From a virus (Duplodnaviria; Caudoviricetes), in IMG/VR virus record IMGVR_UViG_3300028175_000001: a stretch of DNA of 64,000 nucleotides; one strand, 5' to 3'. The notes below the pieces were generated by a model. The model did no database searches, was not told where the DNA came from, and saw only the letters and a program-made list of their open reading frames with translations. The first letter of the stretch is position 1, and each line of letters starts with the position of its first letter. Below are positions 8,004-29,514 of the stretch, piece after piece. The translations under genes and the position numbers were made by a program.

Positions 8004-8272
8004 TTTGATAGAAAATCCGCACTCTGTAAAGTTTGTGCTAATTGCTGTTGCCACAAAGTTACATCTCCTGTAACTTTTCCGCGACTTGTTAAATTAAACT
8101 GTTCGGATAAATTATTCAAACAGTCCAATATTATTTCTTCTTTCTTATTTTCTGGTTGACCCGCAGTTGCAATAAGAGCAATCCATTCCTGACATCCACC
8201 CGGGTATGAACCATAAATCGTATTTTCAAGTGATGTCTTTAATATTTCACTTACTTTTTCTATATTGCCCAT
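8000..8272 (-). CDS. Hypothetical protein
   Basis: ATG 8272 lies 1 nt after the upstream stop and the TGA overlaps the next ATG, consistent with translational coupling. Confidence 0.6.
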   Translation of the reverse strand: MGNIEKVSEILKTSLENTIYGSYPGGCQEWIALIATAGQPENKKEEIILDCLNNLSEQFNLTSRGKVTGDVTLWQQQLAQTLQSADFLSK

Positions 8273-8273
8273 G

Positions 8274-9050: not shown

Positions 9051-9781
9051 TTTATAAACCTTGCGCCGGGATCGATTTCACCAAAACGATATTTATTTTG
9101 GTCATTATGATGATTCAAGTGCCACCCCTCTCCACCTGTTATCAATGCTATCAATAAATTATTAGAAGGTTCACCATGTCTATGACAATAAGCATTTATA
9201 AGACCGTATCCGTGATTTGCAAATACAATAGGAAGACAATAACCAAATACTAACAATAAAGGATCTATTAAAAAAAATATTAATATGATTAATGCATGTA
9301 ATTTAAGATAATTATCATAAAACCATTTTAAACTAGAATTTTTACTAAGACTTAACCAATCTTTAAGGTCTTCTCTTTCTGTTGGTATATACCTAAATCC
9401 TGCTTGAAACCAACCACTTGTATATACCCACCAAAAACCCTTATGTTTCGGACTATGTGGATCTTTCTCTGTATCGACGTATTTATGATGATCCCTGTGA
9501 ACACCTATCCATACTAATGCGGGTCCAGGATTTCCGAATAATCCAATAATTTGACTATAAATTTCATACCACTTGCCGATCTTAAAACTATTATGAGTCC
9601 AATATCTATGGTAGCCACTTGTGCCAGCAGTTATATGAACAAATTGCCACCATATAAAACTATACAATAACATCCACCATTCGCCATAAATTATTGCGGG
9701 TATAATAACTAAATGACAAAATACATTAATAGACCAAATACTATACCTGTTTAATGTAGCATTTTTTTCTAATGAGCCCAT
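9032..9781 (-). CDS. Membrane fatty-acyl desaturase (Delta9-like)
   Basis: His boxes HRYWTH, HRDHH, HLNHH; GEGWH motif; ATG at 9781 preferred over TTG at 9790. Confidence 0.9.
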   Translation of the reverse strand: MGSLEKNATLNRYSIWSINVFCHLVIIPAIIYGEWWMLLYSFIWWQFVHITAGTSGYHRYWTHNSFKIGKWYEIYSQIIGLFGNPGPALVWIGVHRDHHKYVDTEKDPHSPKHKGFWWVYTSGWFQAGFRYIPTEREDLKDWLSLSKNSSLKWFYDNYLKLHALIILIFFLIDPLLLVFGYCLPIVFANHGYGLINAYCHRHGEPSNNLLIALITGGEGWHLNHHNDQNKYRFGEIDPGARFIKWLQVQ

Positions 9782-10143
9782 ATATAACAAACTCCTACTA
9801 CATATTCATCTGTATCAGACAATGATATTCTTACATCTTGTCTTGGGCCTTTGTATTCTTTCGATACTGAAGCATGTACAACAGGAAATCGAACCCCCCT
9901 GCTTGTCAAATGCATGTAACTAACATCTAATCTTAAATAAGGTGAAGCTATTGCTTTAGAATATGCTTCCTTAACACACCAACATTTAGTTAAATATCTA
10001 GCAGTCATAGGACTGGGCGCATTTCTTTTTTCAATATCTGTTAATATTTTATTAACAAATTTGTCTCCCCATTTATCATATATCTTTTGAATAGGTTCGA
10101 TTGTTTGTAAATCAATACCTATTAAATTTTCTCTAGCAGACAT
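9769..10143 (-). CDS. acpS: Holo-ACP synthase (AcpS-type 4'-phosphopantetheinyl transferase)
   Basis: IGID, WCVKEAYSKA and ISLS motifs, ~124 aa; next to PKS and ACP. Confidence 0.85.
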   Translation of the reverse strand: MSARENLIGIDLQTIEPIQKIYDKWGDKFVNKILTDIEKRNAPSPMTARYLTKCWCVKEAYSKAIASPYLRLDVSYMHLTSRGVRFPVVHASVSKEYKGPRQDVRISLSDTDEYVVGVCYIWAH

Positions 10144-11150
10144 AAATCAACTTGAAATCCTGGTCCATAAGAAATCATAACCAGTTTTCCTTCTTTCATA
10201 AAATCATTTTGTAAGGTTTTTATTACACTTGTGGCAGACATATTACCAAATAATCTAAACATCTCAAAAGAAGAATCTAATGCACCGTCAGGTAAATTTA
10301 ATCCTTCTGCAGTATTTTGCAAAACAACTTTTCCACCAGGATGACATATCCAATGATCAATATCATGACCTTTAATAAATTCTTCTACTTTTGGTAATAA
10401 CGCATCAGCGGCTTTTGGTAGTTCCTGCAATTTAGTAGATTCTACATTATATAATAATCCTGCACTTGTTCCTTCAAGAGTAATAAAATCTTCTGTATCA
10501 GGTAAAATATGAGATGCATGTTTAAGTACTTTCCAACCTCCGTGTTCATAATCATCACCAGCCATTAAAATAGCACTTACACCATCACCGAAAATAGTAA
10601 TACCAAATACTGTAGTAAGAGAACGATCTTCAGGATTTAAATTCATTGAAACTAAATCATTAGTGAGACAAATTACTACTTTAGTTGGGTTTGCTTTTAA
10701 AAATTCATCTGCAATTTGTATCACATGCGTACCACCATTACACGCTAAACCAAACATGGGTATTTTAATTACAGAATCAGGAAAATCAAAATGACTAAGC
10801 AATTTATGTGGTACAGTAGGAATTCCTACACCTGTCATTGTTGTAGATGTTATCATACACACATCTTCGGGAACAAGAAGGTCCAATTCCAATACTGCTT
10901 CTAATGATAACTTATGTACTACTTCATTAAATGTTTTATTTTTTTGCGTAAAAGTTTGAGACTGTTCCCGCATTGTCTCAATAGGATAACAAGTATGTCT
11001 ATATTCAACTCCTGTCAATGGCATATATCTGTCAAATACTCTACCCGAATAACCTTTTTCTTGCCACCATTCTTTCAGCTTTACTTTGAAGTCATCATTA
11101 TGTAATCGATTTTCAGGATGTTTAGTTACTATTTGTAAAATTTTACTCAT
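10122..11150 (-). CDS. Type III polyketide synthase (chalcone/stilbene synthase family)
   Basis: Catalytic triad motifs GLACNGG (Cys), HPGG (His), FGNMS (Asn); IFGDG and C-terminal YGPG; 342 aa. Confidence 0.92.
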   Translation of the reverse strand: MSKILQIVTKHPENRLHNDDFKVKLKEWWQEKGYSGRVFDRYMPLTGVEYRHTCYPIETMREQSQTFTQKNKTFNEVVHKLSLEAVLELDLLVPEDVCMITSTTMTGVGIPTVPHKLLSHFDFPDSVIKIPMFGLACNGGTHVIQIADEFLKANPTKVVICLTNDLVSMNLNPEDRSLTTVFGITIFGDGVSAILMAGDDYEHGGWKVLKHASHILPDTEDFITLEGTSAGLLYNVESTKLQELPKAADALLPKVEEFIKGHDIDHWICHPGGKVVLQNTAEGLNLPDGALDSSFEMFRLFGNMSATSVIKTLQNDFMKEGKLVMISYGPGFQVDLCLLEKI

Positions 11151-11752
11151 TCTGCCTCTATTGTCATTTCTCTAATACGACCACTAAAATTAATCATATG
11201 ATCTATACATTCTACACATTGTTCAGGAGAAAGCATATTTGGTTCTAGCTTATGATCATATACTCGATTTACGAGAGTTGCCAATCTTGTTGTTCTTGGA
11301 GTTTCCACCCAACCAGGTCTTAGTAGTGAAATTTTACATCCGTTATGTTTTGCAGTCTTTTCATAACATTCTAGATTAATTTTATCAAGTGATATTTTAC
11401 CTGCTGTATAACGACTATGGCCTATAGGATAATCATCTGTATCTTTTTCAGATGCGATAGAACTAACAGAGATTATATGTTTATTTGGATCATCTTTCCA
11501 TAAATGAAAAACGAATAAAAGTGCTTGTGTTTGAGCCCACCATTTGTAGTCATTATATGCATTGTTTATGAATATATCACCTTTAGGATCAAACCATTCT
11601 TTAATATGTTCTATATCATGTTTATTATATCGCCTACTATGACCTTCTACCTCAATTAAGTCTTTGTATTTTGCGAGATAATTTCCATCATATTTTTCAC
11701 TTAGTGCTTTTCCTATACCGGAAGTCACACCAGTTATAATCATTTTACGCAT
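11147..11752 (-). CDS. Short-chain dehydrogenase/reductase
   Basis: TGVTSGIG Rossmann motif, FINNA, catalytic YTAGK (YxxxK), LRPGWVETP. Confidence 0.88.
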   Translation of the reverse strand: MRKMIITGVTSGIGKALSEKYDGNYLAKYKDLIEVEGHSRRYNKHDIEHIKEWFDPKGDIFINNAYNDYKWWAQTQALLFVFHLWKDDPNKHIISVSSIASEKDTDDYPIGHSRYTAGKISLDKINLECYEKTAKHNGCKISLLRPGWVETPRTTRLATLVNRVYDHKLEPNMLSPEQCVECIDHMINFSGRIREMTIEAE

Positions 11753-11996
11753 TTGCTTTTCGCTCTACCATATTATATAAATCGTTTATTGTTGTTGCTT
11801 TTTGAAACTCTTCTGCATCTAAGGCAATATTAAAAGTATCTTCAATAATTATCATTGTTTCTAAAATATGAATAGAATCAATTTCTAAATCTAAAGCAAT
11901 TTTACTATCGGACTTTATCTCTGGAAAATCAATACCCGCGGCCGCTTCTTCAAACGCGGATTTACATTTTTCTTCAATTTCTTGTCGTGTGTACAT
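11745..11996 (-). CDS. Acyl carrier protein
   Basis: 83-aa acidic protein with DLEIDSIHILE phosphopantetheine-attachment motif and EDTFNI...TINDL. Confidence 0.88.
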   Translation of the reverse strand: MYTRQEIEEKCKSAFEEAAAGIDFPEIKSDSKIALDLEIDSIHILETMIIIEDTFNIALDAEEFQKATTINDLYNMVERKANA

Positions 11997-12756
11997 CGTA
12001 TAAATCCTCTTCAGTTATTTGTTCAATGGGTTCAGCAATATAATTAAGGTCACTATGTTTTCCTGTTAATCCGTAAGCATCTGAATGATGACATAATTTA
12101 TAAGACCCCTCTTTATATCCTGCTATGCTAATTAATAAATTAAACCGAGCTGTTAAACCGGCATTAATTACAGTATGATTAATGCAACTATCATCTTGAT
12201 AAGAACTCCCATCTGCTGGTAAATAATATGATTGATCGTCAATAACAAAACGACATCCTGCATTAACTTCAAGGGGTATATGTATATTTTCAAAACTATC
12301 TTGATGCCAATTTATAGTAGTTAAAGGGTTTAACATCGTTATTCTAACTCGGTCTATCTCATAATATATAGACAACTTTTTATAAATGTTATGAAATTCT
12401 GTATCTAAATAATCTTCATTAAAAATAGTATAATCTTTACGTGTTTCAAATCTTTTTAATTTTCTATTAAAATTTGTCCCATCATGTATTATGCGCTTTA
12501 ATATATTGTACTTATAACCAGAAGAAGATGAAAAAACTGATGGTCTTTGAGGACAAAAACTTCTTACAGAATCATATAGTCTTTGTTCTGGTAAACAGTC
12601 TTTTGAATGTAAAAGTCCCAATACATAAGCATCATTAAAGTCGTCTCTTGTATTGAGATCCCATGGAGCGAATAAAGATTTTAGCGGCTGAAGTTCTTTT
12701 TGTAAACGATCTATATCAAATTCCCAAGGTAATTTTTTTACATAAATTGGTCTCAT
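11974..12756 (-). CDS. Aspartyl/asparaginyl beta-hydroxylase-like Fe/2OG oxygenase
   Basis: RVRITMLNPLTTINWHQD (HxD), IHIPL, HTVINAG and terminal RFNLLI pattern typical of the AspH/LpxO-like family. Confidence 0.75.
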   Translation of the reverse strand: MRPIYVKKLPWEFDIDRLQKELQPLKSLFAPWDLNTRDDFNDAYVLGLLHSKDCLPEQRLYDSVRSFCPQRPSVFSSSSGYKYNILKRIIHDGTNFNRKLKRFETRKDYTIFNEDYLDTEFHNIYKKLSIYYEIDRVRITMLNPLTTINWHQDSFENIHIPLEVNAGCRFVIDDQSYYLPADGSSYQDDSCINHTVINAGLTARFNLLISIAGYKEGSYKLCHHSDAYGLTGKHSDLNYIAEPIEQITEEDLYDVHTTRN

Positions 12757-13490
12757 TGTTGATGTATATCAAATTCAAGCATTTCACAAGCAGTTTCTAA
12801 TTCAGTAATAGTATCCAAATCTGTTTCCTGGAGCTGACTAAATGTTTCTCTAATATATGCCAGAAGATCCGTTTGTTGTACAGAAGTTAAATTTGCTAAA
12901 ACATATTTATTTTCTTCATCCATAGCATCATATCTTATCGCAGAATCATAATGATTTTTATATATGATCATCATTTTTAAAAAATAGGAATATTTTGAAT
13001 ACGATAAACTTAATAATTTATCCTGAAGTGATTTAGTATCAGGATCAAGCCATGAACCGGTTTCTAATTCATCTGCTGACGGACCCCTTGCGGAACCATC
13101 ATCATGTGTTCCGGGATTATCTGATATCCATGATAACCAATTATCACGCATAAATGATGTACAATATTTTGTACTAGCATTTAATCTTTCATCAGTAAAC
13201 CATGATATATCTTGTTGCGATAAAAAAGTTCTACTGAAAACGGGTTCTGCATCTTCGAAGATATTAGACGGGTTTAAAATGCATCCTTGATACTTAAACA
13301 TATAAGTTCTATCTAACCATTGATCTTCTGTAATACCACATTCCAAATACACATCTTTATTGGTTATTAAAATATCAACTATATCATTAAACCTAGCAAT
13401 ATCATCACTCTCCATTAGAACCATAATTTGTCGGTCAGCCTTTAATTGTTTCCAGCTAGGATTACTTTTAAATACTTCGGCTTCAGCCAT
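12753..13490 (-). CDS. Hypothetical protein
   Basis: 245-aa acidic ORF abutting both neighbours. Confidence 0.7.
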   Translation of the reverse strand: MAEAEVFKSNPSWKQLKADRQIMVLMESDDIARFNDIVDILITNKDVYLECGITEDQWLDRTYMFKYQGCILNPSNIFEDAEPVFSRTFLSQQDISWFTDERLNASTKYCTSFMRDNWLSWISDNPGTHDDGSARGPSADELETGSWLDPDTKSLQDKLLSLSYSKYSYFLKMMIIYKNHYDSAIRYDAMDEENKYVLANLTSVQQTDLLAYIRETFSQLQETDLDTITELETACEMLEFDIHQQ

Positions 13491-13700
13491 TTAAATGCTT
13501 TCCATTCTACGTGTATATCTATCTTTTAGCTCATTAAAATTAGATGTCAAATTAGCAGAAATAAATATAGACTCTGTTGAGTCTAAAAAGTTCAATATTT
13601 TTTGATATCCGTTTTTTGTGAAATCTTCACTTTCTATTTTATTTATTTTAAATAAAATAGTTTCAAACGATAGGTTTTTTAAGTTTACAATTTTACTCAT
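13491..13700 (-). CDS. Small hypothetical protein
   Basis: 69 aa; ATGA overlap with upstream stop; stop abuts next ATG. Confidence 0.55.
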   Translation of the reverse strand: MSKIVNLKNLSFETILFKINKIESEDFTKNGYQKILNFLDSTESIFISANLTSNFNELKDRYTRRMESI

Positions 13701-14611
13701 TTTAGTATACCATCTTCTCCAGGCATTACTACAGGTAGACTTGGATCAAGCGCATATTCATTTGGGAGATTTACAGTATCGTCACAATATGGAAGTTTTC
13801 CTTCAGTTGATAATATATTCCCGTATTCATCAGCTTTTTCATTTTTTTCTCCAGTAATTTCTTCTATAGGATCGTCAATGGGTCTATTGTTTTGGCCGGC
13901 AAGTCGAACATCAACTATGCCCTGACCAGGAGTGTCTGCACCCTGTACTGCTTGAGGATGTTTTGCGGGAGGATATGGCCCTCCCGCATGTAAATCCAAA
14001 GAACCAACTCCATCTTGACCATGCGCATTTCCTTGAGGTTTAAATATTTGCCCTCCAACACCTTCATTAACAAAAGCATCAACATCAATAATCGCATCAT
14101 CAAGAGTTTTTTTACTAAGGTCATCACGAGCAGTGTCTAGATATTCCATATAGTCTTTAGTGTTGCCTATAGCCTTAATGAGATGTTCTTTACATTGATT
14201 ATCACAATATTTATGAAAGTCAGAAGCAAACTGGCAATTACAAATCATTCCTTTTACATATTCTGCCTGTTCACCTGCTTCTGTTGTATAAGTAGGAGAG
14301 TCGTGTTCAACCATTCCTTCCAATTCTCTCAGAGTGTATTCAACAAGCTCATCAACCTTTTTGTCTTGATTTTCATCTACTTGAATATTTTGATGAGCAG
14401 TTGGCAATCCACCGGCCGGCTGACCTGTATCGGCCGTTAAAGTTTGACTATTCATATCCGTCAACATCTGTTGCTTTTGCAACGCACTTAATCCCAAATC
14501 TAATGACTTTAGTAATGTCATACCTATTGGCTGTGTTATTTCATCATCCAATAGTGGTGATAATGCGGCAATAGCGGCATTTGTGCATTCAATAACTTTA
14601 TTTTCACTCAT
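13697..14611 (-). CDS. Hypothetical protein with central Cys cluster
   Basis: 304 aa with ICNCQFASDFHKYCDNQCKEH and a low-complexity Gly/Pro/Asp-rich C-terminal half; 8-bp overlap with the rSAM gene. Confidence 0.7.
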   Translation of the reverse strand: MSENKVIECTNAAIAALSPLLDDEITQPIGMTLLKSLDLGLSALQKQQMLTDMNSQTLTADTGQPAGGLPTAHQNIQVDENQDKKVDELVEYTLRELEGMVEHDSPTYTTEAGEQAEYVKGMICNCQFASDFHKYCDNQCKEHLIKAIGNTKDYMEYLDTARDDLSKKTLDDAIIDVDAFVNEGVGGQIFKPQGNAHGQDGVGSLDLHAGGPYPPAKHPQAVQGADTPGQGIVDVRLAGQNNRPIDDPIEEITGEKNEKADEYGNILSTEGKLPYCDDTVNLPNEYALDPSLPVVMPGEDGILK

Positions 14612-15956
14612 GATTTATCTCTCTGGGGAAATTTCTTTTTTGGGTTTCAAGCATTTCTTCTGCTATGTGATCTAAACCAGAACCCTGGCCAGAGGTATCT
14701 ATTATTCCCAATCTATCAATAGCAGTTGTCGGATGACCGGTTCTAGGCAATATTCTATTTTTTTCTTCTTTATCTCCTGCATCAGGAAGATGTTTCATTC
14801 CTTTTCCTACTCTCACTAATCCATTTTGTATTGATGCCAATCCTTGTTCTGTATAATAAAATCTATGATCTTTACGTTCTCCACAAGAATTACACATATC
14901 ACAAAACATGTGGCATACAGGAGAAAATAATTTATTTTTTATCCATTGTTTCCGTAAATAATCTATCTGTTCTTTTAATAACCAATTAATTTTTGCTTTA
15001 TCTTCGGGACTATCTTTACCCGCTAAACTTTCATCTATAGATGTAACAACTCTATCCGGTCCATATGTCTTGACTATACGCAAAATATCCTTAGCAAAAC
15101 ATTGTACATTTGATCTGTGAATAGTATACCTGGCCCTCCATTTAATTTGGTCTTGGGGTGGCATATTGGAATTATAATCTGAAATATTTTTAAATGCTTT
15201 TAATACATCTGGAGTAGAATCTTTACCAGAATAATATACCCTATCTAAATTTCCTGCACCATCAAAACTAATATCAAAAGAAACCCGTTGTTTAATTCCT
15301 GGATTAGATTCCAAAAAAGTAATAACACTATTAAAAAATTTTGGCTTACTTAAAAGTATACCATTAGTTGTTATATTGAAATGTAAATTGTGCTTCTGAG
15401 AATATGCATAATTCATAAGATATTCACAATTTTTCCATTCTAACATCGGTTCACCACCAAAAATACAAAATAAAGTTTGTTCATCTGGTCTATCGGTTTT
15501 ATTAATATCATCTACAAGTTTTTTCAACAATGGTGGTTCGGGTAAATGTTTTGGTCGATTTTCTAAATGTTCATAGCAATAAGAACAATTTAAATTACAT
15601 TGACTTGTCATATAAAATAAATGTATACCTCCACCGTGTGCAACTCTTGTATTTTCGTTTTCACCATGAGTAAAATGTCTATCCATAATTTCATTAACAT
15701 TGGCTTCTGCTAAATCAAGTCTTCCTTCTTTTAGTGCTTTAACACGGTCATAATGTTCATCTTTTGATACGCTTTCTACATGTTGTTTTACTACTTGATT
15801 CAATTCACGATCAGTTAGAGTTAATAATTTTTTAACATCATGTTTTTCATATTTACATACACCTTCTCCTGTTTTCAATCCTCGTTCATAATCAATAACA
15901 CCATCAAGAGATCCCATGGTGGGTAAAACTTTTTTAGAGCGTGTTAGTGTTTTCAC
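14604..15956 (-). CDS. Radical SAM enzyme (short auxiliary Cys cluster)
   Basis: CNLNCSYC, FGGEPML, ITTNG, ISFDG; C-terminal CHMFCDMCNSC; ~110-aa N-terminal extension; GTG start overlapping the upstream TAG. Confidence 0.9.
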   Translation of the reverse strand: MKTLTRSKKVLPTMGSLDGVIDYERGLKTGEGVCKYEKHDVKKLLTLTDRELNQVVKQHVESVSKDEHYDRVKALKEGRLDLAEANVNEIMDRHFTHGENENTRVAHGGGIHLFYMTSQCNLNCSYCYEHLENRPKHLPEPPLLKKLVDDINKTDRPDEQTLFCIFGGEPMLEWKNCEYLMNYAYSQKHNLHFNITTNGILLSKPKFFNSVITFLESNPGIKQRVSFDISFDGAGNLDRVYYSGKDSTPDVLKAFKNISDYNSNMPPQDQIKWRARYTIHRSNVQCFAKDILRIVKTYGPDRVVTSIDESLAGKDSPEDKAKINWLLKEQIDYLRKQWIKNKLFSPVCHMFCDMCNSCGERKDHRFYYTEQGLASIQNGLVRVGKGMKHLPDAGDKEEKNRILPRTGHPTTAIDRLGIIDTSGQGSGLDHIAEEMLETQKRNFPREINHE

Positions 15957-16366
15957 TATTTTCCCCTTACAACTGGTCTTTCGTCCAGTTTTCTGCGGAT
16001 TTGTTCTTCTGGATTTTGTTTTAGAATATATGCTATGTTTTTCATAAGTCTAGGAAAATCAATGTTATAATTAAATAAATGTGACTTTATTCTTGTACCA
16101 TCTGATTCAGGATTCCAAGAATCATAAAGTAAATTTTTATCTCTCGCTTGTTTTTTTGATGGGGTGTCTTCTAGCTGTACTTGATTAATAAGAGTTTGAA
16201 TATCTCCGTCTTTTGCGGCCCTTGCCGATTTTTCATATCGCTCTACTGATTTTTTATTTTTATTATTTATTACAGCCTCTTGTCCTGAAATCGCAGGATG
16301 CCATCCTTCTTCACGATCTAGATCATTTAGTTCTTCTGGAGTTCCGTGTATTTTATTTTTTTCCAT
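15956..16366 (-). CDS. Hypothetical protein
   Basis: Charged 136-aa ORF (ATG 16366) overlapping both neighbours. Confidence 0.6.
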   Translation of the reverse strand: MEKNKIHGTPEELNDLDREEGWHPAISGQEAVINNKNKKSVERYEKSARAAKDGDIQTLINQVQLEDTPSKKQARDKNLLYDSWNPESDGTRIKSHLFNYNIDFPRLMKNIAYILKQNPEEQIRRKLDERPVVRGK

Positions 16367-17174
16367 GTAACAATTTTCCAAGATATTTTATCTGTTCAAA
16401 TACTCTTTCTTGTTCAATAGCCATATATTTGTAAGCAAATTCAAATTGAGTATCAGAATTGCCCCCATCAAACGTTAGCATTAATCCATTTTTTTCAAAC
16501 CACGCTTTTGTTGACCAATCTTCATGGTTAAATAATTTAAAATAGTTCCACATAATTTTAATATTTTTTTCTATGGAAGACGAAAAAATATTTAAATTTT
16601 TCATTGAATCTACAGTAAAAACTATATACGCACAACATTGCCAGTCTGTATCATATGCGGGATCGTTTTGATCGTAATGGCCCTCACACGATTCTATAAC
16701 ATCAACACCATCAAATATATTAATTCCACTAACCAACGGTTCTATTCCACATTCAACAATATCTTTTTGATGATCTTTAATTTCTATGTGGCCTATCTGT
16801 AAAGCACCAAGTCTATTAAGATTTTCATAAACTTCTGTTGGTAACCCAGACATATGATCATACACTAATCCAAATTTAGATAAAAAGTTATTCAATATTA
16901 ATCTAAAAGATTTTGATGATTTCTCTGTATTTTTAATAATGATAAAATCACCTATCATATTACCACAATTTTCAATACCTGTCGTTTTTTCAATTACATG
17001 ATTTAATACCGTTAAATCAATAAGATGATCAATATCTTTTATGATAAACAAATTAGACCTAAATTGATATACTGTTACATCCTTACGATCTATTAAATAT
17101 CCAGGCAAATATTTTGTGGGACCGCCAGTGTCCGCAGTTCTGGTGTCTACTACTGGTTCATCAAATATTCCCAT
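16353..17174 (-). CDS. TYW3-like 'SCEGH' protein, paralog B
   Basis: ECGIEPLVSGINIFDGVDVIESCEGH; N- and C-terminal segments align with 5715..6515. Function uncertain. Confidence 0.45.
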   Translation of the reverse strand: MGIFDEPVVDTRTADTGGPTKYLPGYLIDRKDVTVYQFRSNLFIIKDIDHLIDLTVLNHVIEKTTGIENCGNMIGDFIIIKNTEKSSKSFRLILNNFLSKFGLVYDHMSGLPTEVYENLNRLGALQIGHIEIKDHQKDIVECGIEPLVSGINIFDGVDVIESCEGHYDQNDPAYDTDWQCCAYIVFTVDSMKNLNIFSSSIEKNIKIMWNYFKLFNHEDWSTKAWFEKNGLMLTFDGGNSDTQFEFAYKYMAIEQERVFEQIKYLGKLLHGKK

Positions 17175-17187
17175 AAAACCTTTCTTC

Positions 17188-18516
17188 TCAAGTACCTCTT
17201 TGAAGTTTCTTTATGTTATGATTATCTTTAGATTGTAAAAAAGCCAAGGTCGAATTATAATCCTTATAATCAAAAGATTTAATTTTTTCTTCAGTTTTAA
17301 TTTTAAAATTTGTTAACCTTTTATATTTTTCATTCTTTTGCCACGCCTCATCTATCATCTCAAACATATCTACTTCTTCTTTATCTGCATTTGGCTCATA
17401 AAATCCTGTCCTACCCCCCCAAAGCGTCTTAATATATGTTTGAAAAGTTGGCATATCTTTACATATTTCTACCATTCTTATCGCTTCATCATAATATATA
17501 TGAAACAATTCGCACACAGAATCGATTGGTTGATTACCATTTCTTAATTGCGAATATGTACAACCTGCATTACACACTTTATATAATCTACATCCTTTAC
17601 ATTTATCAAATGCTAAAGGATTAAATACAGATTGAAAATAATCAAAATTATATTCATCGCCTTTCATTGGTAATAATTTCTTTGAGCCAAATCTTGCACA
17701 TGGATAAAATGTTCCATCTACTGCCATAATAGAACCATGATGACCAGCAAAACACCCGAATGCTCGTTTTTGTTTAGTTAATCCTAATAACATGTCTTGT
17801 AGGGGAAGATTAAACATTCCATTAGATATTAATTTTCCTTCATCATAATATTGTATGGTTCTATCTGCCAGTCTTCGACATTCCACTCTAAATTTATGAA
17901 TATCGTCTAGGGACCAAATATCATCTCTTACAATAGAAAAATCAGGAGCAGGAATACCGAAATCTACTAAAAATTCAAAATTTTCTGTCATTGAATCAAC
18001 ATTGCCTGGAAATATCATAATTTTACATGTTTTATTATGTTTTGTAACTTTCTTTATAAGATGTTGTCTATCACTGTACATCTCTAAAACATTATTGTAT
18101 CCTTTATTCTCTCCAAAATTTTTAATAATAGGTCTTGATTCGTTTGCTGATATACCATCAAAACTCCAACTAACTCCAATCTGATTATCTAATATCCAAT
18201 CAGCAGTTTCTTCGTTAATTAACGATAGATTAGATATCATAGTAAGACCAACCAATCTATCCTCATATTCAGGAACTTTAACTTTTTTACAAACATGATC
18301 CATCAATGGCACATTTAATAGTGGTTCGCCCCCAAAAAAAGATAAATGAAATTGTTGACCATGGGCTTTTGATCTTTGAATTAATTGTAAAAATTCTGGC
18401 CAAGCCTTATCAAAAATTTCAGGAGTCATAAATTTATCAACATTAGCAACATAGCAATACGGGCACCCCAAATTGCATTTTTCTGTTACAGATATTTCTA
18501 ATTGATAACTAGGCAT
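17188..18516 (-). CDS. Radical SAM/SPASM peptide maturase-like enzyme
   Basis: CNLGCPYC, FFGGEPLLN, SFDG; full SPASM cysteines CFAG...YPC...CKGCRLYKVCNAGC...C; start reassigned to ATG 18516 (ATGCCTAG overlap). Confidence 0.92.
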   Translation of the reverse strand: MPSYQLEISVTEKCNLGCPYCYVANVDKFMTPEIFDKAWPEFLQLIQRSKAHGQQFHLSFFGGEPLLNVPLMDHVCKKVKVPEYEDRLVGLTMISNLSLINEETADWILDNQIGVSWSFDGISANESRPIIKNFGENKGYNNVLEMYSDRQHLIKKVTKHNKTCKIMIFPGNVDSMTENFEFLVDFGIPAPDFSIVRDDIWSLDDIHKFRVECRRLADRTIQYYDEGKLISNGMFNLPLQDMLLGLTKQKRAFGCFAGHHGSIMAVDGTFYPCARFGSKKLLPMKGDEYNFDYFQSVFNPLAFDKCKGCRLYKVCNAGCTYSQLRNGNQPIDSVCELFHIYYDEAIRMVEICKDMPTFQTYIKTLWGGRTGFYEPNADKEEVDMFEMIDEAWQKNEKYKRLTNFKIKTEEKIKSFDYKDYNSTLAFLQSKDNHNIKKLQRGT

Positions 18517-20059
18517 ATTTGCTCTCTGTAGTTTCTGATCTCTTTGGTAAGCTTGATATATTAAAAACTGCACCTATATTCTTGGCCGTTTCTGAAGTGG
18601 GCTCTTTGGATAAACCAGATATAACAGGAGTTTGCTGTTCAATAGAATTGACTTCTAAATTATGACCCTGCGAATAATTTCCTGGTCTATTCATCATAAT
18701 TATTGAATCCGGATTCTTTTTAATCCACAGGGTTCTCCATGCTTTAGATACAGGCTCCAGTGTTTTCCATACTTGACACAATTGATGATTTGCTGGATGA
18801 TTTTGCCATTTTTTACCAGCATCCTGTTCTTCACCAAATTTTGCATCTGCGGCATCAAATGAACCCGCAGGACACTTTAAACAAAAATCCGCTGTACATG
18901 TATTACACGCTAATGTTCCATCTGTTCTAAATTCATCCAAATAAGAACGATATAATGATGTTGTTTCATCCACAAATTTTTGCATTTGCATACCAGATTC
19001 CATTAAATCGCCTCTTACATGATCCTCTCTTTGTCTATACATACACCCATGACAAGGATATGTTTTACCGTCTAAATCAATTGAAAGATAATTAATACCA
19101 GCCGCACAATTTTGTTTTTCTTTTCTGAACCATCTAAAGTGATTTTCTAAATTAATATCATGATCTATACTATATTTCACAATTTTCATTAAATTCACTC
19201 TTAGATCCTTTAAGTGACCCATATATTCTTCTTCCTTAACTGCACCATCAATTCTATCTGGATCTGTACTGTGAGTGTCAGGAGTGGGTCCATATGATTC
19301 TCCATTATCATAATGCCATTTCCAAACATCAAAAAGATATTTAAAATTGCGAGATGATATGACTGCTTTAATACCTATAGAAAAACCATCAGATTTTAAC
19401 TCTTTATAAGTTGCATAAACAGTTTTAGATAATTTTTCACTTTCTCCTGCTTTAGTTCTACGTTCCATCGTATTAACAGGTTCACCATCAAAAGATACTT
19501 GAATATGTAAACGTGATTGTTGCGGCATATCTAATCTATTTCCCAACAGACCTTTTAATTCTATTAACTGTTTTTTATACTTTTTAAGATAAGTTCCATT
19601 AGTATAGAACATAAAACATACTTTTTGAGTATCAGCCAATCTTTTCATTATATCTTTGCAAAAAAGAAAATTAGCAAAAGGTTCTCCGCCCCACCAATTT
19701 ATATTAATATCTCTATACCTATCCATATCCAATGACCTAACTGTTTTTTCTATATCTTCAGGAGTCATCTCTGTTTTTTCTTGATATTGTGATGACAATC
19801 CGCACGATTCTCCTTCAGAACAATATGTACAAGCAAGATTACATTCACTCGTTACATTAACATCTAAATTAAAACTTTGCATTGGATTAAAATTATTTGA
19901 CATTGCACCACCACCCTGTCCCTGGGGCATTGTTGATCCCCCCATCTGTTTTAACATTTTTTCTTGTTCTTCCATCGTTTTTCGCATTTGCATCATTTGC
20001 TGTTGCATTTGTTCGGGTGACATTTGTTCTTTTATAGGATCAAATCGGATATTATTCAT
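18509..20059 (-). CDS. Radical SAM/SPASM peptide maturase-like enzyme
   Basis: CNLACTYC, WWGGEP, FYTNG, VSFDG; CAAG...YPCHGC...CNTCTADFCLKC...C; Gln/Met-rich N-terminus; starts 3 nt after the Cys-rich gene. Confidence 0.92.
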   Translation of the reverse strand: MNNIRFDPIKEQMSPEQMQQQMMQMRKTMEEQEKMLKQMGGSTMPQGQGGGAMSNNFNPMQSFNLDVNVTSECNLACTYCSEGESCGLSSQYQEKTEMTPEDIEKTVRSLDMDRYRDININWWGGEPFANFLFCKDIMKRLADTQKVCFMFYTNGTYLKKYKKQLIELKGLLGNRLDMPQQSRLHIQVSFDGEPVNTMERRTKAGESEKLSKTVYATYKELKSDGFSIGIKAVISSRNFKYLFDVWKWHYDNGESYGPTPDTHSTDPDRIDGAVKEEEYMGHLKDLRVNLMKIVKYSIDHDINLENHFRWFRKEKQNCAAGINYLSIDLDGKTYPCHGCMYRQREDHVRGDLMESGMQMQKFVDETTSLYRSYLDEFRTDGTLACNTCTADFCLKCPAGSFDAADAKFGEEQDAGKKWQNHPANHQLCQVWKTLEPVSKAWRTLWIKKNPDSIIMMNRPGNYSQGHNLEVNSIEQQTPVISGLSKEPTSETAKNIGAVFNISSLPKRSETTESKYA

Positions 20060-20062
20060 TTT

Positions 20063-20674
20063 TTATTTCGAGTTATTACAGTTACATGGACAGTGATTAC
20101 AATCACATGGACAAAAATTACAGTTACATGGACAAAAATTACAGTTACAAGGACAGAAATTACAATTACAGGGACAAAAATTACAATTACAGGGACAAAA
20201 ATTACAATTACAGGGACAAAAATTACAGTTACATGGACAGTGATTACAATTACATGGACAAAAATTACAATCACATGGACAAAAATTACAATCACATGGA
20301 CAAAAATTACAATTACATGGACAAAAATCACAATCACATACGCACACAACTTTCCATTCATCGAGTTTTGTTACCAGATCGTCTATATGTGCGGCGGCTA
20401 TTAAATCTCCGACACTTACAGCACCATAAGATAATGTTGGTGCGGGACTTGGTGGAGTTTGGGTATATAACTTACTTACTATTTCTCCACGCAATTCATT
20501 CCAAATTTGTGCGGCGACAGGATCTGCCATGCTGGTCCAAGATGAAATCGCTATACTTCTTCTTGTAAACTCATCATTTAATGAAGTTCTGCAAGTAGTT
20601 ATCTCTGACTGCTGAATTAGTGTACCAGCTTGTGCAGGTAAACCAGTTAAATTGGTAGGACATGGCGAACCCAT
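20063..20674 (-). CDS. Cys-rich heptad-repeat protein; putative radical SAM substrate
   Basis: 110-aa N-terminal domain, then CV + 12 x C[ND]C[ND][FH]CP + CNCNNSK; 41 Cys in 203 aa; directly upstream of two rSAM/SPASM genes. Confidence 0.8.
   Translation of the reverse strand: MGSPCPTNLTGLPAQAGTLIQQSEITTCRTSLNDEFTRRSIAISSWTSMADPVAAQIWNELRGEIVSKLYTQTPPSPAPTLSYGAVSVGDLIAAAHIDDLVTKLDEWKVVCVCDCDFCPCNCNFCPCDCNFCPCDCNFCPCNCNHCPCNCNFCPCNCNFCPCNCNFCPCNCNFCPCNCNFCPCNCNFCPCDCNHCPCNCNNSK
20066..20338. repeat. 21-bp coding tandem repeat (12 full units plus 1 partial)
   Basis: Units such as ggacaaaaattacaattacat on the plus strand; variation is synonymous or N/D and F/H in the Cys frame. Confidence 0.95.
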
Positions 20675-20853
20675 TATATTTTACTCCAAAATTTATTCCG
20701 TATTAATTTATCATCATTTCCCAAATAAAGAAAATTTGTGATTCTTGAACCAAGTTTCTTTAATAACATTTCTTCATCTATCTCACTATCAAAATCAAGA
20801 TTACCCCAAAAAGGTGCATCAGTTATATTTGCATATTCCAATATCGTATACTT
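20674..20853 (-). pseudogene. Hidden 59-codon open frame without an in-frame ATG at its 5' end (frameshifted gene, readthrough extension, or 31-aa ORF from ATG 20769)
   Basis: Frame continues after the TGA of 20854..24750: KYTILEYANITDAPFWGNLDFDSEIDEEMLLKKLGSRITNFLYLGNDDKLIRNKFWSKI*; its TAA overlaps the next ATG; two motifs match 2634..3221. Confidence 0.6.
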
Positions 20854-23800
20854 TCATATTTTCACTTCAACAAATCCAGCATCACTATCAGACAATGCTA
20901 TTCCAATTAAATCGTGTTTATGTGATTTATATTCATATTTAGTTATAGATTTTCCTGCACCATCATTATAAGCCATAATAAGGTCCCCTTTAACACATCT
21001 TCCCACAATCTTAACTAATATTCTTCCGGTCAAACAAATAAAGATCATAAATTCATTTTTTCTCTGTTCCATACTATCATTCATCCTCAATCCAGGATTA
21101 TCTGAAACAACACCAGCATAAGGCATTTCAGCTTGATATAGAGTAACTTCTTTTTCTCCTCCAATTGATAAAACAGTTCCTGGATCATATACCAAATCAG
21201 ACTCATATCTCTCGGCCAAGTCAGACCAACTCGCTGATGTTGCTCTTCCATTAAATGTAACCGCATACATATCGTTATATACCATTGTAGATGTACCGAT
21301 ATCGTGTGTATTATTTGCGACAGGAACAATGGCCTTAGTTGTCATTGTTCCATCAAAACCAGAAGTTCCATATACTTTTAAAGCTGATAATCCAGTCACT
21401 CCACTTGAAGAAAAAATAGCACCATTAAAATACAATTCTGTTGGTGTAGTAATATCATTTACTCTATATCCAGAATACGCTCCAAGCGAAGATGATGATG
21501 CATAATATTGAACATATCCAGCGGCTCCTGCTGGACTGGTCGGCGCTCCATCAGCTCCAGAACTTCCAGCAGAGCCAGATGTTCCAGCAGTACCAGCACT
21601 TCCTGCACTTCCAGCAGAACCAGATGATGCATATGTTAATCCAGAAGAACCAGCAGTCCCAGACGTTCCAGAAGAACCAGCAGAGCCAGAAGTTCCCGCA
21701 GATCCAGACGTTCCAGCAGAACCAGAAGAACCAGAAGAACCAGCAGTACCAGATGATCCAGAAGTTCCAGAACTTCCTTCTCCAAAAGTTAATGCCGCCC
21801 AACCAGATATTGCAGTAGCAAAAACTAATTTAGCGGTATTTGAACTAATATAACGAATTGATTCTGGATAAATTACATCATAGTTAGAATCTACAACTTC
21901 AATATTTAAAGGTCTAACTCCTAAATTATGATTTATTAACCAAACAGAACTTGCTGAACCTTGAACATGAATCCAGGAACCACCATCTTGACCAGAAGAA
22001 CCAGCACTTCCAGCACTTCCTGCGGAACCCGCACTTCCTGCAGTTCCAGCAGAACCAGAAGAACCAGAAGAACCAGCAGTACCAGATGATCCAGAAGTTC
22101 CAGCAGAGCCAGATGATCCTGCACTTCCAGCACTTCCTGCACTTCCAGAAGAACCAGCAGAACCAGAAGAGCCAGCGGAACCAGATGTTCCAGCAGAGCC
22201 AGAAGTTCCAGCAGAGCCAGCACTACCAGCACTTCCTGCAGAACCAGCAGAACCAGCACTTCCAGCAGAGCCAGATGATCCAGATGATCCAGAAGTTCCA
22301 GCACTTCCAGAAGTCCCTGCGCTTCCAGCACTTCCAGCACTTCCAGCAGAGCCAGCACTTCCTGCAGTTCCAGCACTTCCAGAAGAACCCGCAGAACCAG
22401 CAGAACCAGAAGATGCATATGTTAATCCAGAAGAACCAGAGGAACCAGTAGAACCAGCAGAGCCAGCAGAGCCAGATGATCCTGCACTTCCTGCACTTCC
22501 AGAAGAACCAGCACTTCCAGCACTTCCAGCAGAACCTGCACTTCCAGCACTTCCAGCAGAGCCAGCACTTCCTGCACTTCCTGCAGAGCCAGATGATCCA
22601 GCACTTCCAGCACTTCCTGCGGAACCCGCACTTCCTGCAGTTCCAGCAGAACCAGAAGAACCAGCAGAACCAGATGTTCCAGCAGAGCCAGAAGTTCCAG
22701 CAGAGCCAGATGATCCTGCACTTCCAGCACTTCCTGCACTTCCAGAAGAACCAGCAGAACCAGAAGAACCAGCAGAACCAGATGTTCCAGCAGAGCCAGA
22801 AGTTCCAGCAGAGCCAGCACTACCAGCACTTCCTGCAGAACCAGCAGAACCAGCACTTCCAGCAGAGCCAGATGATCCAGATGATCCAGAAGTTCCAGCA
22901 CTACCAGCACTTCCTGCAGAACCAGCAGAACCAGCACTTCCAGCAGAGCCAGATGATCCAGATGATCCAGAAGTTCCAGCGGTACCAGAATCACCAGTTC
23001 TTGCGAATGAAGCAACAATTTCAGTATTGTTTTGAAAATTATTTAATGAAGAATCTAAAAATGTAACATCCACATAATACCATGAGGGATTTGTGGTATC
23101 AAATTCATTAATGCTGTATAAGAAATACTTTTCAGGAGCTGATTTATCATAAATTCGAAAATGGCCTTTTGGAACACTAAAAGCAACATCATCAATTGTC
23201 TGTAAGAAAGAATCAATTGTCGTGCCATCTTGATCAGTATCACTTATTCTCAATCTATTAGCAGTAGTGGGATATGTAAAAGCACCAGTAGTTAATGTAA
23301 ATGCCAATTTACCCGTACCTGGATCATTCGTTGATTGATCTGTACTGTAACGATATGCAAATGAAGCACCCCCAAAACCACCATCATGTCCAGATGAACC
23401 AGAAGTACCAACAGTCCCAGAACTTCCAGAACTTCCAGCAGAACCAGATGTTCCAGATGATCCAGAAGTTCCAACACTTCCAGAAGAACCCGCAGAACCA
23501 GCAGAACCAGAAGATGCATATGTCAATCCAGAAGAACCAGCAGAACCAGATGTTCCAGCAGAACCAGATGTTCCAGATGATCCAGAAGTTCCAGCACTTC
23601 CTGCAGAACCAGCAGAACCAGCAGAACCAGCACTTCCAGCAGAGCCAGCACTTCCTGCAGTTCCAGCACTTCCAGAAGAACCAGCAGAACCAGAAGAACC
23701 AGAAGATGCATATGTCAATCCAGAAGAACCAGCAGAACCAGAAGTACCAATTGGACCATCAGCTCCAGATGATCCAGAAGTTCCAGCACTTCCAGCAGAA

Positions 23801-24750
23801 CCCGCAGAACCCGCAGTTCCAGAAATTCCAGAAGAACCAGCACTTCCAGCAGAGCCAGCACTTCCTGCAGAACCAGTACTTCCAGAAGAACCTGCAGTTC
23901 CAGAAGTTCCCGCAGTTCCAGAAATTCCAGAAGAACCAGATGTTCCAGATGATCCTGCACTTCCAGCACTTCCTGCACTTCCAGAAGAACCAGCAGAACC
24001 AGAAGTACCAATTGGACCATCAGCTCCAGATGATCCAGAAGTTCCAGCAGAGCCAGAAGAAGCATATGTCAATCCAGAAGAACCAGCAGAACCAGAAGTT
24101 CCAATTGGACCATCAGCACCAGAAGTTCCAGATGTTCCAGCAGAGCCAGCACTTCCCGCAGAACCCGCAGTTCCAGAAATTCCAGAAGAACCAGCACTTC
24201 CAGCAGAACCAGAAGATGCATATGTCAAGCCAGAACTTCCGGAACTACCCGCACTTCCGGAAGAAGTATCCCCTCCTCCGCCTCCACCAGATTCTCCCCA
24301 ACCACTTCCACCGGCCACTCGTTGGGCAGTTAAAGTGGCTTTTTTACTAATCTTTTTAACAACTTCTTTAAAATTATCTAACTCTTTTACGAGTTTAGTT
24401 ACATCAGCATCATCACCAGATTCTCCCTTTTCTCCCATTGGTCCTATAGGTCCAATATCTCCTAAATCTCCCCTAGGACCCTGAACACCTTGTGGACCAA
24501 TTCTTCCTGATATTCCTTTAACGCCCACTTCGCCAGCAAGCCCCTTTTCGCCCTTTTCTCCCTTTTCTCCCTTAGGACCTACAGTGCCTTTAATTTCAAG
24601 AACTTTAACTGTTTCACCAGTAACAGGATCTAAAATTTCTTTTATATCCTCTACAAGTTCTTCTTTAGTTTTTTTTAATTGTTTTTTAGTATAAGCAAGA
24701 GAAGTTGCTAGAACCTTACTTAAATCTAAATCTTTTTGATCGTCTTTCAT
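20854..24750 (-). CDS. Giant collagen-like / Ser-Ala-Thr-Gly repeat fibre protein with C-terminal chaperone-like domain
   Basis: 20 Gly-X-Y triplets, three long [ST][AS]G arrays, globular inserts (YSTDQSTNDPGTG; WLINHNLGVRP) and C-terminal DLAERY...PGTVL...GVVSDNPGLRMN as seen in phage fibre C-termini. Confidence 0.75.
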   Translation of the reverse strand: MKDDQKDLDLSKVLATSLAYTKKQLKKTKEELVEDIKEILDPVTGETVKVLEIKGTVGPKGEKGEKGEKGLAGEVGVKGISGRIGPQGVQGPRGDLGDIGPIGPMGEKGESGDDADVTKLVKELDNFKEVVKKISKKATLTAQRVAGGSGWGESGGGGGGDTSSGSAGSSGSSGLTYASSGSAGSAGSSGISGTAGSAGSAGSAGTSGTSGADGPIGTSGSAGSSGLTYASSGSAGTSGSSGADGPIGTSGSAGSSGSAGSAGSAGSSGTSGSSGISGTAGTSGTAGSSGSTGSAGSAGSAGSAGSSGISGTAGSAGSAGSAGTSGSSGADGPIGTSGSAGSSGLTYASSGSSGSAGSSGSAGTAGSAGSAGSAGSAGSAGSAGSAGTSGSSGTSGSAGTSGSAGSSGLTYASSGSAGSAGSSGSVGTSGSSGTSGSAGSSGSSGTVGTSGSSGHDGGFGGASFAYRYSTDQSTNDPGTGKLAFTLTTGAFTYPTTANRLRISDTDQDGTTIDSFLQTIDDVAFSVPKGHFRIYDKSAPEKYFLYSINEFDTTNPSWYYVDVTFLDSSLNNFQNNTEIVASFARTGDSGTAGTSGSSGSSGSAGSAGSAGSAGSAGSAGTSGSSGSSGSAGSAGSAGSAGSAGSAGSAGTSGSAGTSGSAGSSGSAGSSGSAGSAGSAGSSGSAGTSGSAGTSGSAGSSGSAGTAGSAGSAGSAGSAGSSGSAGSAGSAGSAGSAGSAGSAGSAGSAGSSGSAGSAGSSGSAGSAGSTGSSGSSGLTYASSGSAGSAGSSGSAGTAGSAGSAGSAGSAGSAGTSGSAGTSGSSGSSGSAGSAGSAGSAGSAGSAGSAGTSGSAGTSGSAGSSGSAGSSGSAGSAGSAGSSGSAGTSGSSGTAGSSGSSGSAGTAGSAGSAGSAGSAGSSGQDGGSWIHVQGSASSVWLINHNLGVRPLNIEVVDSNYDVIYPESIRYISSNTAKLVFATAISGWAALTFGEGSSGTSGSSGTAGSSGSSGSAGTSGSAGTSGSAGSSGTSGTAGSSGLTYASSGSAGSAGSAGTAGTSGSAGSSGADGAPTSPAGAAGYVQYYASSSSLGAYSGYRVNDITTPTELYFNGAIFSSSGVTGLSALKVYGTSGFDGTMTTKAIVPVANNTHDIGTSTMVYNDMYAVTFNGRATSASWSDLAERYESDLVYDPGTVLSIGGEKEVTLYQAEMPYAGVVSDNPGLRMNDSMEQRKNEFMIFICLTGRILVKIVGRCVKGDLIMAYNDGAGKSITKYEYKSHKHDLIGIALSDSDAGFVEVKI
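21545..24270. repeat. Degenerate 9-bp coding repeat arrays (about 21545-21745, 21985-22995, 23390-24270)
   Basis: ccagcagaa/ccagaagaa/cctgcactt units; a near-identical block of ~290 bp occurs twice (about 22020-22310 and 22620-22900); six GLTYASSG interruptions. Boundaries approximate. Confidence 0.9.
24409..24588 (-). repeat. Collagen-like Gly-X-Y segment (20 triplets)
   Basis: GTV GPK GEK GEK GEK GLA ... GES GDD. Confidence 0.9.
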
Positions 24751-26459: not shown

Positions 26460-26473
26460 GATATTTCCTGAAT

Positions 26474-26524: not shown

Positions 26525-26545
26525 AAAATCAGAAAATTGAGATTT

Positions 26546-27133: not shown

Positions 27134-27144
27134 CTATTTTCTCC

Positions 27145-29506: not shown

Positions 29507-29514
29507 TATTTATA
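29507..29514 (-). promoter_or_regulatory. T4-type late promoter TATAAATA for gp18
   Basis: Exact motif, intergenic, upstream of the GGGGAG RBS. Confidence 0.75.

Follow-up and report, generated by a model that had tools for sequence, protein, structure and literature searches.

A cysteine-heptad array protein co-inherited with three radical SAM enzymes in T4-like phages: a candidate cross-linked module of virion fibre proteins

The stretch of viral DNA analyzed here (hereafter the window: 64,000 nucleotides of IMG/VR record IMGVR_UViG_3300028175_000001, Duplodnaviria, Caudoviricetes) encodes a 203-aa protein with a C-terminal array of Cys-rich heptads, followed by genes for three radical S-adenosylmethionine (SAM) enzymes, here called rSAM1, rSAM2 and rSAM3. 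Sequence comparison with related phage contigs supports the view that this Cys-heptad protein and the three rSAMs form one conserved functional unit. The explanation we favor, with slightly better than even confidence, is that the protein is a trimeric, fibre-type virion protein whose Cys-rich rod would be matured by the three co-inherited rSAMs, thioether cross-links being the likeliest modification, and that it does not give rise to a diffusible peptide. The feature itself is real, conserved and undescribed in the searchable literature, as full-text searches retrieved no paper connecting a Cys-repeat phage protein with rSAM enzymes. Its components have been reported: Timms et al. (2010) documented a 21-bp intragenic repeat (CPT_0180) and, separately, 11–12 rSAM genes in the phages CP220 and CPt10, and did not connect the two with each other (PMC2853527), and Nishimura et al. 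(2017) described marine genomes of T4-like type that carry as many as 12 rSAM genes plus Fe–S assembly genes (PMC5332604). All long open reading frames (ORFs) of the window, whose G+C content is about 32%, lie on the minus strand; those of the array and the enzymes are as follows.

20063–20674, minus strand: Cys-heptad protein, 203 aa, identified by its ORF, Cys counts, 21-bp repeat and match to phrog_26958
about 20345–20674, minus strand: N-domain of the Cys-heptad protein, residues 1–110, with 2 Cys
about 20069–20344, minus strand: array, residues 111–201, with 13 heptads C-P-C-[ND]-C-N-[FHN] counted in the translation
18509–20059, minus strand: rSAM1, radical SAM/SPASM enzyme, 516 aa, PF04055 at 45.0 bits; its start and the Cys-gene stop overlap
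17188–18573, minus strand: rSAM2, radical SAM/SPASM enzyme, 461 aa from a GTG start, PF04055 at 42.3 bits
14604–15956, minus strand: rSAM3, radical SAM enzyme, 450 aa, PF04055 at 39.7 bits, with a 110-aa N-terminal extension

The Cys-array protein and its family

The two parts of the Cys-heptad protein differ sharply in composition, with 39 Cys among the 93 residues from 111 to 203 and 2 in residues 1–110. The original prediction, made from the letters of the window alone, had described a 203-aa protein with a 110-aa N-terminal domain, 39 Cys in 93 residues and 12 heptads, and the ORF and the counts agree with it; the register C-[ND]-C-[ND]-[FH]-C-P yields 12 heptads, and C-x-C-[ND]-C-[ND]-[FHN] yields 13. 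Within the array, which contains neither Lys nor Arg, the Cys are spaced 2-2-3, and at the DNA level Tandem Repeats Finder reports a 21-bp period with 12.6 copies and 89% matches at 20075–20339. The protein matches phrog_26958 (E 1.4e-22) and ends directly after the array, with no S74 domain of its own. Because 561 sequence clusters match a profile of the 203-aa protein, the reading frame is no accident of the repeat. AlphaFold2, run on a 118-sequence alignment, models the N-domain as three helices with a predicted local distance difference test (pLDDT) value above 90, and the N-domain is thus predicted to be a conserved folded domain. Foldseek comparison of this model with PDB and BFVD returned no match at E ≤0.001. 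VIA-align gave a best Z of 8.1, and a three-fold beta-alpha BARA domain was among the matches (Z 7.8); this likeness was dropped, as it falls within the chance range for helical models. A homotrimer prediction with three copies scored 0.00 and yielded no verdict.

The Cys-array family is large and almost exclusively viral. A word-based search recovered 36 relatives, and a profile search of 1.84 billion representatives recovered 561 clusters (50% identity), of which 308 have E ≤1e-10; the gene set as a whole is seen again in dozens of distant phages. Family members share a plan of a variable N-terminal part, in which a helix motif I-x-A-x-x-x-N-x-L-R occurs two or three times together with an E-x-x-R-R motif, followed by a junction helix and the array. 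Across 652 heptads from 150 proteins, the unit reads C-[T 50%, P 20%]-C-[N 63%, D 27%]-C-[N 82%, D 13%]-[Y 68%, F 15%, H 10%], summarized as C-[TPS]-C-[ND]-C-[ND]-[YFH]; units are 7 residues long in 603 cases and 8 in 309, and an aromatic residue is present in every unit. Some phages (L047, L048, L079, L082) carry two to four tandem paralogues. In two of these, four (L047:12735–15332) and three (L048:9489–11555) tandem paralogues each have a short four-unit array and end in a 13-residue S74 stub.

Searches of the Cys protein and its relatives against Pfam and NCBIfam, up to E 10, returned nothing besides the S74 and Hint domains discussed below, and the family profile matched none of the PDB sequences. 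A Pfam 38.1 family for Cxxx-repeat rSAM targets (PF27846) occurs on 52% of one viral cluster, an Atlas lead that is unconfirmed for the Cys protein. Megablast of the cassette against an isolate phage collection gave no match, and neither did tblastn of the Cys protein against the same collection; a low-complexity filter is the likely reason for the latter, since the CP220 homologue was later found by PHROG and a pattern scan. Among 185,579 species genomes scanned, only six loci of the family were found, all on contigs of metagenome-assembled genomes (MAGs) and all six with rSAM1/rSAM2 orthologues alongside; we infer that these are mis-binned phage contigs.

The three radical SAM enzymes and their linkage to the array

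It had been proposed from the window alone that the two genes following the Cys gene encode rSAM/SPASM enzymes and that a third rSAM lies 1.2 kb further on, and both statements hold. All three proteins score above the Pfam cut-off for PF04055 (29.5 bits), and rSAM3 begins 1231 nt beyond the end of rSAM2; rSAM2, whose conservation is the highest in the set, more likely starts at a later ATG (M20) than at the GTG. Conservation of Cys was assessed in alignments of 37 (rSAM1), 43 (rSAM2) and 35 (rSAM3) orthologues from related phage contigs, in which the CX3CX2C motif is kept in 97–100%. In rSAM1 this motif (residues 73/77/80) is joined by seven further conserved Cys, and in rSAM2 by seven near-invariant Cys (98%), including CX2CX5CX3C. 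The SPASM feature of about seven Cys holding two auxiliary 4Fe–4S clusters is therefore present in rSAM1 and rSAM2, with seven Cys in 98–100% of orthologues. It is lacking in rSAM3, where Cys are kept at 120/124/127 and, as the only four conserved C-terminal Cys, at 348/352/355/358 in a single auxiliary CX3CX2CX2C. The Pfam SPASM model itself gives rSAM1 16.7 bits versus a cut-off of 21.5, its orthologues being borderline at 21.4–21.5; it is because of the Cys sets conserved among orthologues that we describe two SPASM enzymes and a third enzyme with one auxiliary site.

Sequence comparison places the three rSAMs closest to thioether-forming maturases of Cys-containing peptides, yet in no described family. 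The top NCBIfam model for all three is PapB (NF047865), at 75.4 bits for rSAM1, 135.5 for rSAM2 and 62.9 for rSAM3 versus a cut-off of 340. Behind PapB in the NCBIfam lists come maturases of the QhpD, nif11, SCIFF, CcpM, CXXX-repeat, Cys-every-fifth (CefB) and HxsB types. QhpD (TIGR03906) is the second-best model of rSAM2 and reaches at most 82.9 bits with it (cut-off 453); the SCIFF maturase model (TIGR03974) likewise scores best with rSAM2, at 66.2 bits (cut-off 425), and CefB (NF038107) gives 33 to 47 bits (cut-off 600). The best solved structure by sequence search is, for each of the three, 5WGG (E 1.9e-13 for rSAM2 and 7e-9 for rSAM3), which we take to be the SCIFF maturase CteB. No RiPP recognition element (RRE; RiPP, peptide made on the ribosome and modified post-translationally) is recognizable in rSAM1 or rSAM2, the alignment of rSAM2 to 5WGG beginning at chain residue 100. 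The N-terminal extension of rSAM3 aligns with the N-terminal parts of the HxsB, CcpM and SCIFF models, and NCBIfam peptide-maturase models align to rSAM3 from residue 43 on.

Linkage between array and enzymes was evaluated from both sides. With the Cys gene as anchor, rSAM ORFs lie no more than 10 kb away in 21 of 27 viral loci; in four of the remaining six the contig ends no more than 1.7 kb after the gene, and in one the rSAMs are present but were missed by phmmer. The contigs of five distant relatives (26–36% identity) carry 1, 3, 3, 6 and 8 rSAM genes around the Cys gene. Two loci, L011 and L012, had at first appeared to be relatives devoid of rSAMs; this was ruled out by longer contigs with the identical protein, which carry rSAM1, rSAM2 and rSAM3 3–8 kb downstream. 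Anchored on rSAM2 (≥33% identity), 50 of 57 viral loci have a family member (hmmsearch E ≤1e-5) within 10 kb. The seven exceptions comprise two cut flanks, three Campylobacter phages whose array gene lies elsewhere in the genome, L070, and L055; the last was ruled out as a trio without a Cys gene, because both gene ends are present and the middle is collapsed or frameshifted. Among weaker rSAM2 relatives, 16 of 18 loci lack a family member. Homologous rSAM trios occurring without any Cys-rich neighbor had been named beforehand as an observation that would speak against the proposed system, and essentially none was found. The three rSAM classes can be assigned unambiguously, the best score being several-fold above the second, and they stay with the Cys gene through at least three gene orders (Cys-r1-r2-r3, r1-r2-r3-Cys and r2-r3-r1-Cys); simple hitch-hiking is ruled out by this persistence through the three main orders.

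A probable virion fibre role, proposed maturation and its rivals

The region of the window that holds the array is the structural region of a T4-like myovirus, in which the genes run in the order sheath, tube, portal, collagen-like fibre and then the Cys-heptad/rSAM cassette.

24777–29466, minus strand: context of T4-type portal, tail tube and sheath genes
20854–24750, minus strand: collagen-like fibre protein, 1298 aa, Pfam Collagen E 1.8e-92, directly upstream of the Cys-heptad gene

The portal protein matches phrog_213 (E 2.5e-204) and shares 54% identity with portals of Synechococcus phages; the tube protein matches gp19 and the sheath protein matches sheath domains (Pfam). The Cys gene lies between the gene for the collagen-like fibre and the remaining genes of tail and neck. 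In relatives, one to three arrays lie inside proteins of 380–680 aa, linking globular parts, and in three relatives (P0025, L061, L041) a Peptidase_S74 domain (PF13884) starts, at profile position 1, right after the last heptad, with 28.3 bits in L061 and 29.6 bits in L041 (cut-off 22) and E 1.5e-5 in P0025. Many other relatives retain only a 13-residue S74 stub, S-D-x-x-x-K-x-x-I-x-Y. P0099 has a Hint domain after its array (27.2 bits, just under the cut-off of 28.4). By eye, P0056 and P0100 have a similar Hint/intein-like end, a second self-cleaving type of end besides S74. Because both S74 and Hint self-cleave, the mature forms of the relatives that bear them would end with the array, as the window protein does already. 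In PMC4690869 and PMC8326128, S74 is presented as a self-cleaving trimerization chaperone of fibre and tailspike stalks.

Members of the family also occur in cultured Campylobacter firehammerviruses. CP220 gp140 (534 aa), which defines phrog_26958, combines the junction helix with seven C-x-C-D-C-N-Y-C-T units in a mid-protein array, and CPt10_1891 is likewise a member. Genomes of the CP220/CPt10 type contain 11–12 dispersed rSAM genes, including an rSAM2 orthologue of 33% identity. By mass and gene order, gene 3-9 of vB_CcoM-IBB_35 is a homologue of the Cys-array protein. This gene (1605 bp, 60,318 Da) is among the 38 purified-virion proteins detected by electrospray ionization tandem mass spectrometry (PMC3322345 Table S2), and the mass calculated here is 60,317 Da. 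The genes beside the rSAM2 orthologue in CP220 (gp020–022) do not encode Cys-repeat proteins. A second Cys-repeat protein, with C-x-x-C-x-x-C runs and 14 to 17 Cys per 42 residues, is encoded next to the portal gene in these phages (L086:17908–18276, CP220 gp032; L087:17900–19334, CP21), about 7 kb from the rSAM2 orthologue, and may be another rSAM target.

From these comparisons, the substrate relation and the structural role appear well supported. In the mechanism we propose, the folded N-domain would carry a C-terminal rod of 7- or 8-residue C-x-C-[ND]-C-[ND]-aromatic units, and the rod would assemble into a trimer that may take the form of a triple beta-helix. Triple beta-helices located before S74 domains have short repeats per strand, and T4 gp5 has an 8-residue repeat; the units of the array resemble such repeats, and their 7/8-residue period and position before S74 are what a triple beta-helix with one strand in each turn would lead one to expect. 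The two SPASM rSAMs and the single-auxiliary-cluster rSAM, assisted by a small conserved accessory protein, would act post-translationally on the rod as their presumed substrate, working on the unfolded chain before trimer assembly. Given the kinship of the enzymes, thioether chemistry is proposed: Cys sulfur may be linked to neighboring side chains through ranthipeptide- or QhpC-type thioethers to Asn/Asp. In a unit C1-x-C3-N4-C5-N6-aromatic7, the candidate pairs are C1 with N4 and C3 with N6, both at Cys-x-x-Asn spacing. The cross-link chemistry, like the choice of Asn/Asp or Phe/His as acceptors, is purely conjectural. The maturation would yield a highly stable fibre segment with covalent laddering; in its most specific form, with at least one thioether or other radical cross-link per 7-residue unit and the rod as the distal part of a trimeric virion fibre, this is a tentative proposal that we regard as rather more doubtful than probable.

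Several observations weigh against this explanation. The link between array and rSAMs is genomic only, and modification has been observed nowhere. AlphaFold2 gives the array no confident structure (pLDDT about 50), and a folded triple beta-helix would bury the Cys, so that modification before assembly is required. Every rSAM score is far under the curated maturase cut-offs. About 145 kb separate the rSAM2 orthologue from the array gene in Campylobacter phages, which implies that adjacency is not required, but also means that the rSAMs could have other targets; the virion detection comes from one data set, in which 2.6% of the sequence was covered (PMC3322345). One 23%-complete fragment (L020) has a Cys gene and no rSAM at all, an 8.6-kb contig (L070) has rSAM2 and rSAM1 with no Cys gene beside them, and several relatives carry many extra rSAMs beside sugar-modifying enzymes.

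An unlikely alternative is that the rod binds metal or Fe–S clusters and carries no covalent modification. The CxCxC motifs would then bind Zn, Fe or Fe–S, and the rSAMs would serve another target or use the Cys protein as their cluster store. There are three Cys per seven residues, and His-x-His motifs in the T4 gp37 fibre tip bind iron. IscA-like genes lie directly after rSAM2 in L046 and L057, the genes are dispersed in Campylobacter phages, and rSAM-rich marine T4-like phages also carry Fe–S assembly genes (PMC5332604). However, metal binding leaves unexplained the co-inheritance of exactly three peptide-maturase-type rSAM classes through at least three gene orders, and a role as a store or scaffold fits neither the S74/Hint fusions nor the virion detection. 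The unit, with an aromatic residue in every copy and Asn at 82%, is also unlike metallothioneins, in which aromatic residues are rare. A similarly unlikely alternative accepts the array as substrate and assigns the enzymes another chemistry, such as epimerization, C–C (cyclophane) links with the aromatic residue, conversion of Cys into formylglycine or dehydro residues, or methylthiolation. The conserved aromatic position would suit such a reaction, three different enzymes suggest more than one reaction, and the matches include YydG among the PDB matches of rSAM1, presumably an epimerase, and the cyclophane maturases YhhB and XyeB and the anaerobic sulfatase maturase in the NCBIfam lists; the top-scoring models for all three enzymes are nonetheless formers of Cys thioethers (PapB, QhpD, SCIFF).

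The original prediction was of a RiPP-like cross-linking system, and a true RiPP would have the N-domain as a long leader from which the cross-linked array is cut off and released as a diffusible toxin, signal or metallophore. We consider this very unlikely, although the enzyme families are those of RiPP maturases, the array is C-terminal in the window protein, and S74 and Hint indicate proteolytic processing at the C-terminal end of the array in relatives. Pfam, NCBIfam and PHROG scans recognized no leader protease, exporter or immunity gene near the cassette; the neighbors at 3728–16381 belong to no protease or transporter family, but four of them are without any hit, so that a novel protease is possible. 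The array is not preceded by a site of the double-Gly type, the N-domain is predicted with high confidence to be a conserved folded domain, no RRE is recognizable in rSAM1 or rSAM2, arrays lie inside large multi-domain proteins, and both the position in a structural module and the virion mass spectrometry speak otherwise. What stands of the prediction is therefore a conserved unit with maturase-like enzymes; a small product, cleaved from a leader and exported, does not.

Radical SAM/SPASM cross-linking has so far concerned small bacterial peptides and one enzyme subunit (QhpC), and here the same type of enzyme is tied to a repeat module of particle-type proteins in hundreds of phage lineages. 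If the most specific form of the proposal holds, radical SAM chemistry would for the first time be seen to mature a protein of the virus particle, and rSAM-cross-linked material would gain a new class on the scale of whole proteins, widespread in T4-like phages of the ocean, the gut and Campylobacter. An enzymatic link would imply a new viral way to harden or functionalize a fibre and, for RiPP enzymology, a new periodic substrate motif with three enzymes on one 7-residue unit; it would also suggest a target for some of the rSAM genes of Campylobacter and marine T4-like phages (PMC2853527, PMC5332604). As the cultured phages CP220, CPt10 and IBB_35 carry a family member, the idea is directly testable on virions.

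Further genes of the module and comparison with known systems

Additional genes of the window have counterparts at related loci.

16353–17174, minus strand: p273, conserved protein, 37% identical to neighbors in L005 and L111
15956–16381, minus strand: small accessory protein, 141 aa, with a motif H-L-F-x-Y-x-x-D (alignment A5 of 16 orthologues)
13697–14611, minus strand: p304, conserved neighbor of rSAM3, with homologues after rSAM3 in L005/L036 (E 3e-49) and L111 (27% identity)
11974–12756, minus strand: 2-oxoglutarate (2OG) oxygenase resembling Asp/Asn beta-hydroxylases, 260 aa, PF05118 at 32 bits
8274–9050: 2OG oxygenase with an orthologue inside the L111-lineage module

The 141-aa accessory protein directly follows rSAM2 in most related loci (gene orders A and B), and in the window p273 sits between the two; AlphaFold2 models the accessory protein as helical with low confidence (pLDDT 64). 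In L046 (6194–6523) and L057 (11161–11493) its place directly after rSAM2 is taken by an IscA/HesB-like Fe–S carrier, a call made by eye from a C-terminal C-G-C-G-x-S-V-x-F motif. The protein p273 belongs to no Pfam, NCBIfam or PHROG family, its Atlas leads being weak only, and has a paralogue in the window, p266, at 5715–6515. Orthologues of p273, p266, p304, the hydroxylase-like protein and the 2OG oxygenase all lie inside the module of the L111 lineage, where the Cys gene is immediately followed by those of p273 and the hydroxylase; the hydroxylase orthologue, 45% identical, is found two genes after the Cys gene in L111, L112 and L114. It is therefore possible that the 260-aa protein is an extra member of the module and, because its orthologue lies there, hydroxylation of Asn/Asp may conceivably be part of array maturation. 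Around the Cys gene of L010 and L007 there are up to eight radical SAM genes (about 300 aa) with DegT aminotransferase and epimerase genes, and the L007 cluster also contains an IS605-type transposon (TnpA, TnpB).

Downstream of the cassette, 3728–12756 encodes a type III polyketide synthase-like enzyme, a phosphopantetheinyl transferase, a fragment of a short-chain dehydrogenase/reductase, two to three fatty-acid desaturases, and 2OG, TauD and Rieske oxygenases. Since orthologues of the 2OG oxygenase (8274–9050) and p266 lie inside the rSAM module of the L111 lineage, the cassette and this gene set may be interleaved. Upstream, the 1298-aa fibre protein contains 11 stretches matching Pfam collagen, which consist almost entirely of Gly-Ser/Thr-Ala/Ser triplets, with globular inserts between them, and in its counterpart in L012 (2007 aa) these blocks are present in greater number. 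A 55-aa ORF at 20674–20857, located between the fibre and Cys-heptad genes, resembles part of a 180-aa gene found in the same place in the relatives L004 and L005, and is probably a remnant of that gene. A T4-type late promoter motif, TATAAATA, lies 41 nt upstream of where the sheath gene begins, at 29507–29514 on the minus strand. Overall the motif shows no enrichment (7 copies versus 13 expected), and the next exact minus-strand copy is only at 2243; the genes from sheath to rSAMs may for this reason be late-transcribed as one run. Sigma-70 promoter and terminator scans returned chance level only.

Among known systems, PapB/PapA (freyrasin) and CteB likewise place an rSAM/SPASM enzyme beside a Cys-rich repeat substrate, and Asn/Asp near Cys in the phage array could likewise be acceptors. 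The phage system differs in having three enzymes and not one, scoring 63–135 bits versus the PapB cut-off of 340 and therefore no members of that family; in a substrate with a 110-aa folded N-domain or of 380–680 aa in total; in lacking a recognized protease or exporter and, in rSAM1 and rSAM2, a recognizable RRE; and in being virus-encoded within a structural gene module. The CXXX-repeat (TIGR04115) and CefB systems also pair a periodic Cys target with a dedicated rSAM/SPASM maturase. Comparison with the CXXX-repeat maturase models, suggested at the outset, places the phage enzymes outside that family, as TIGR04115 gives 70.5 bits for rSAM2 and 52.4 for rSAM3 versus a cut-off of 350, and the Cys spacing of 2-2-3 contrasts with 4 in CXXX repeats and 5 in CefB targets. 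QhpD and QhpC resemble the explanation favored here in that there is no diffusible product: the SPASM enzyme thioether-links Cys to Asp/Glu in a protein that is kept in a larger assembly, the gamma subunit of quinohemoprotein amine dehydrogenase. QhpC, however, has no repeat array and is not viral.

On the structural side, we know of no fibre stalk built of Cys, Asn and aromatic heptads or linked to rSAM enzymes. In trimeric fibres and tailspikes with S74, such as endosialidase and T5 pb1, the place of the triple beta-helix stalk (PMC4690869, PMC8326128) corresponds to that occupied by the array in the S74-bearing relatives; the window protein is unlike these fibres in having no S74 of its own. 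The Campylobacter phage proteins CP220 gp140, CPt10_1891 and IBB_35 gene 3-9 differ from the window protein in their length of 534 aa, their mid-protein array and their dispersed rSAM genes, and share with it the junction helix and the heptads.

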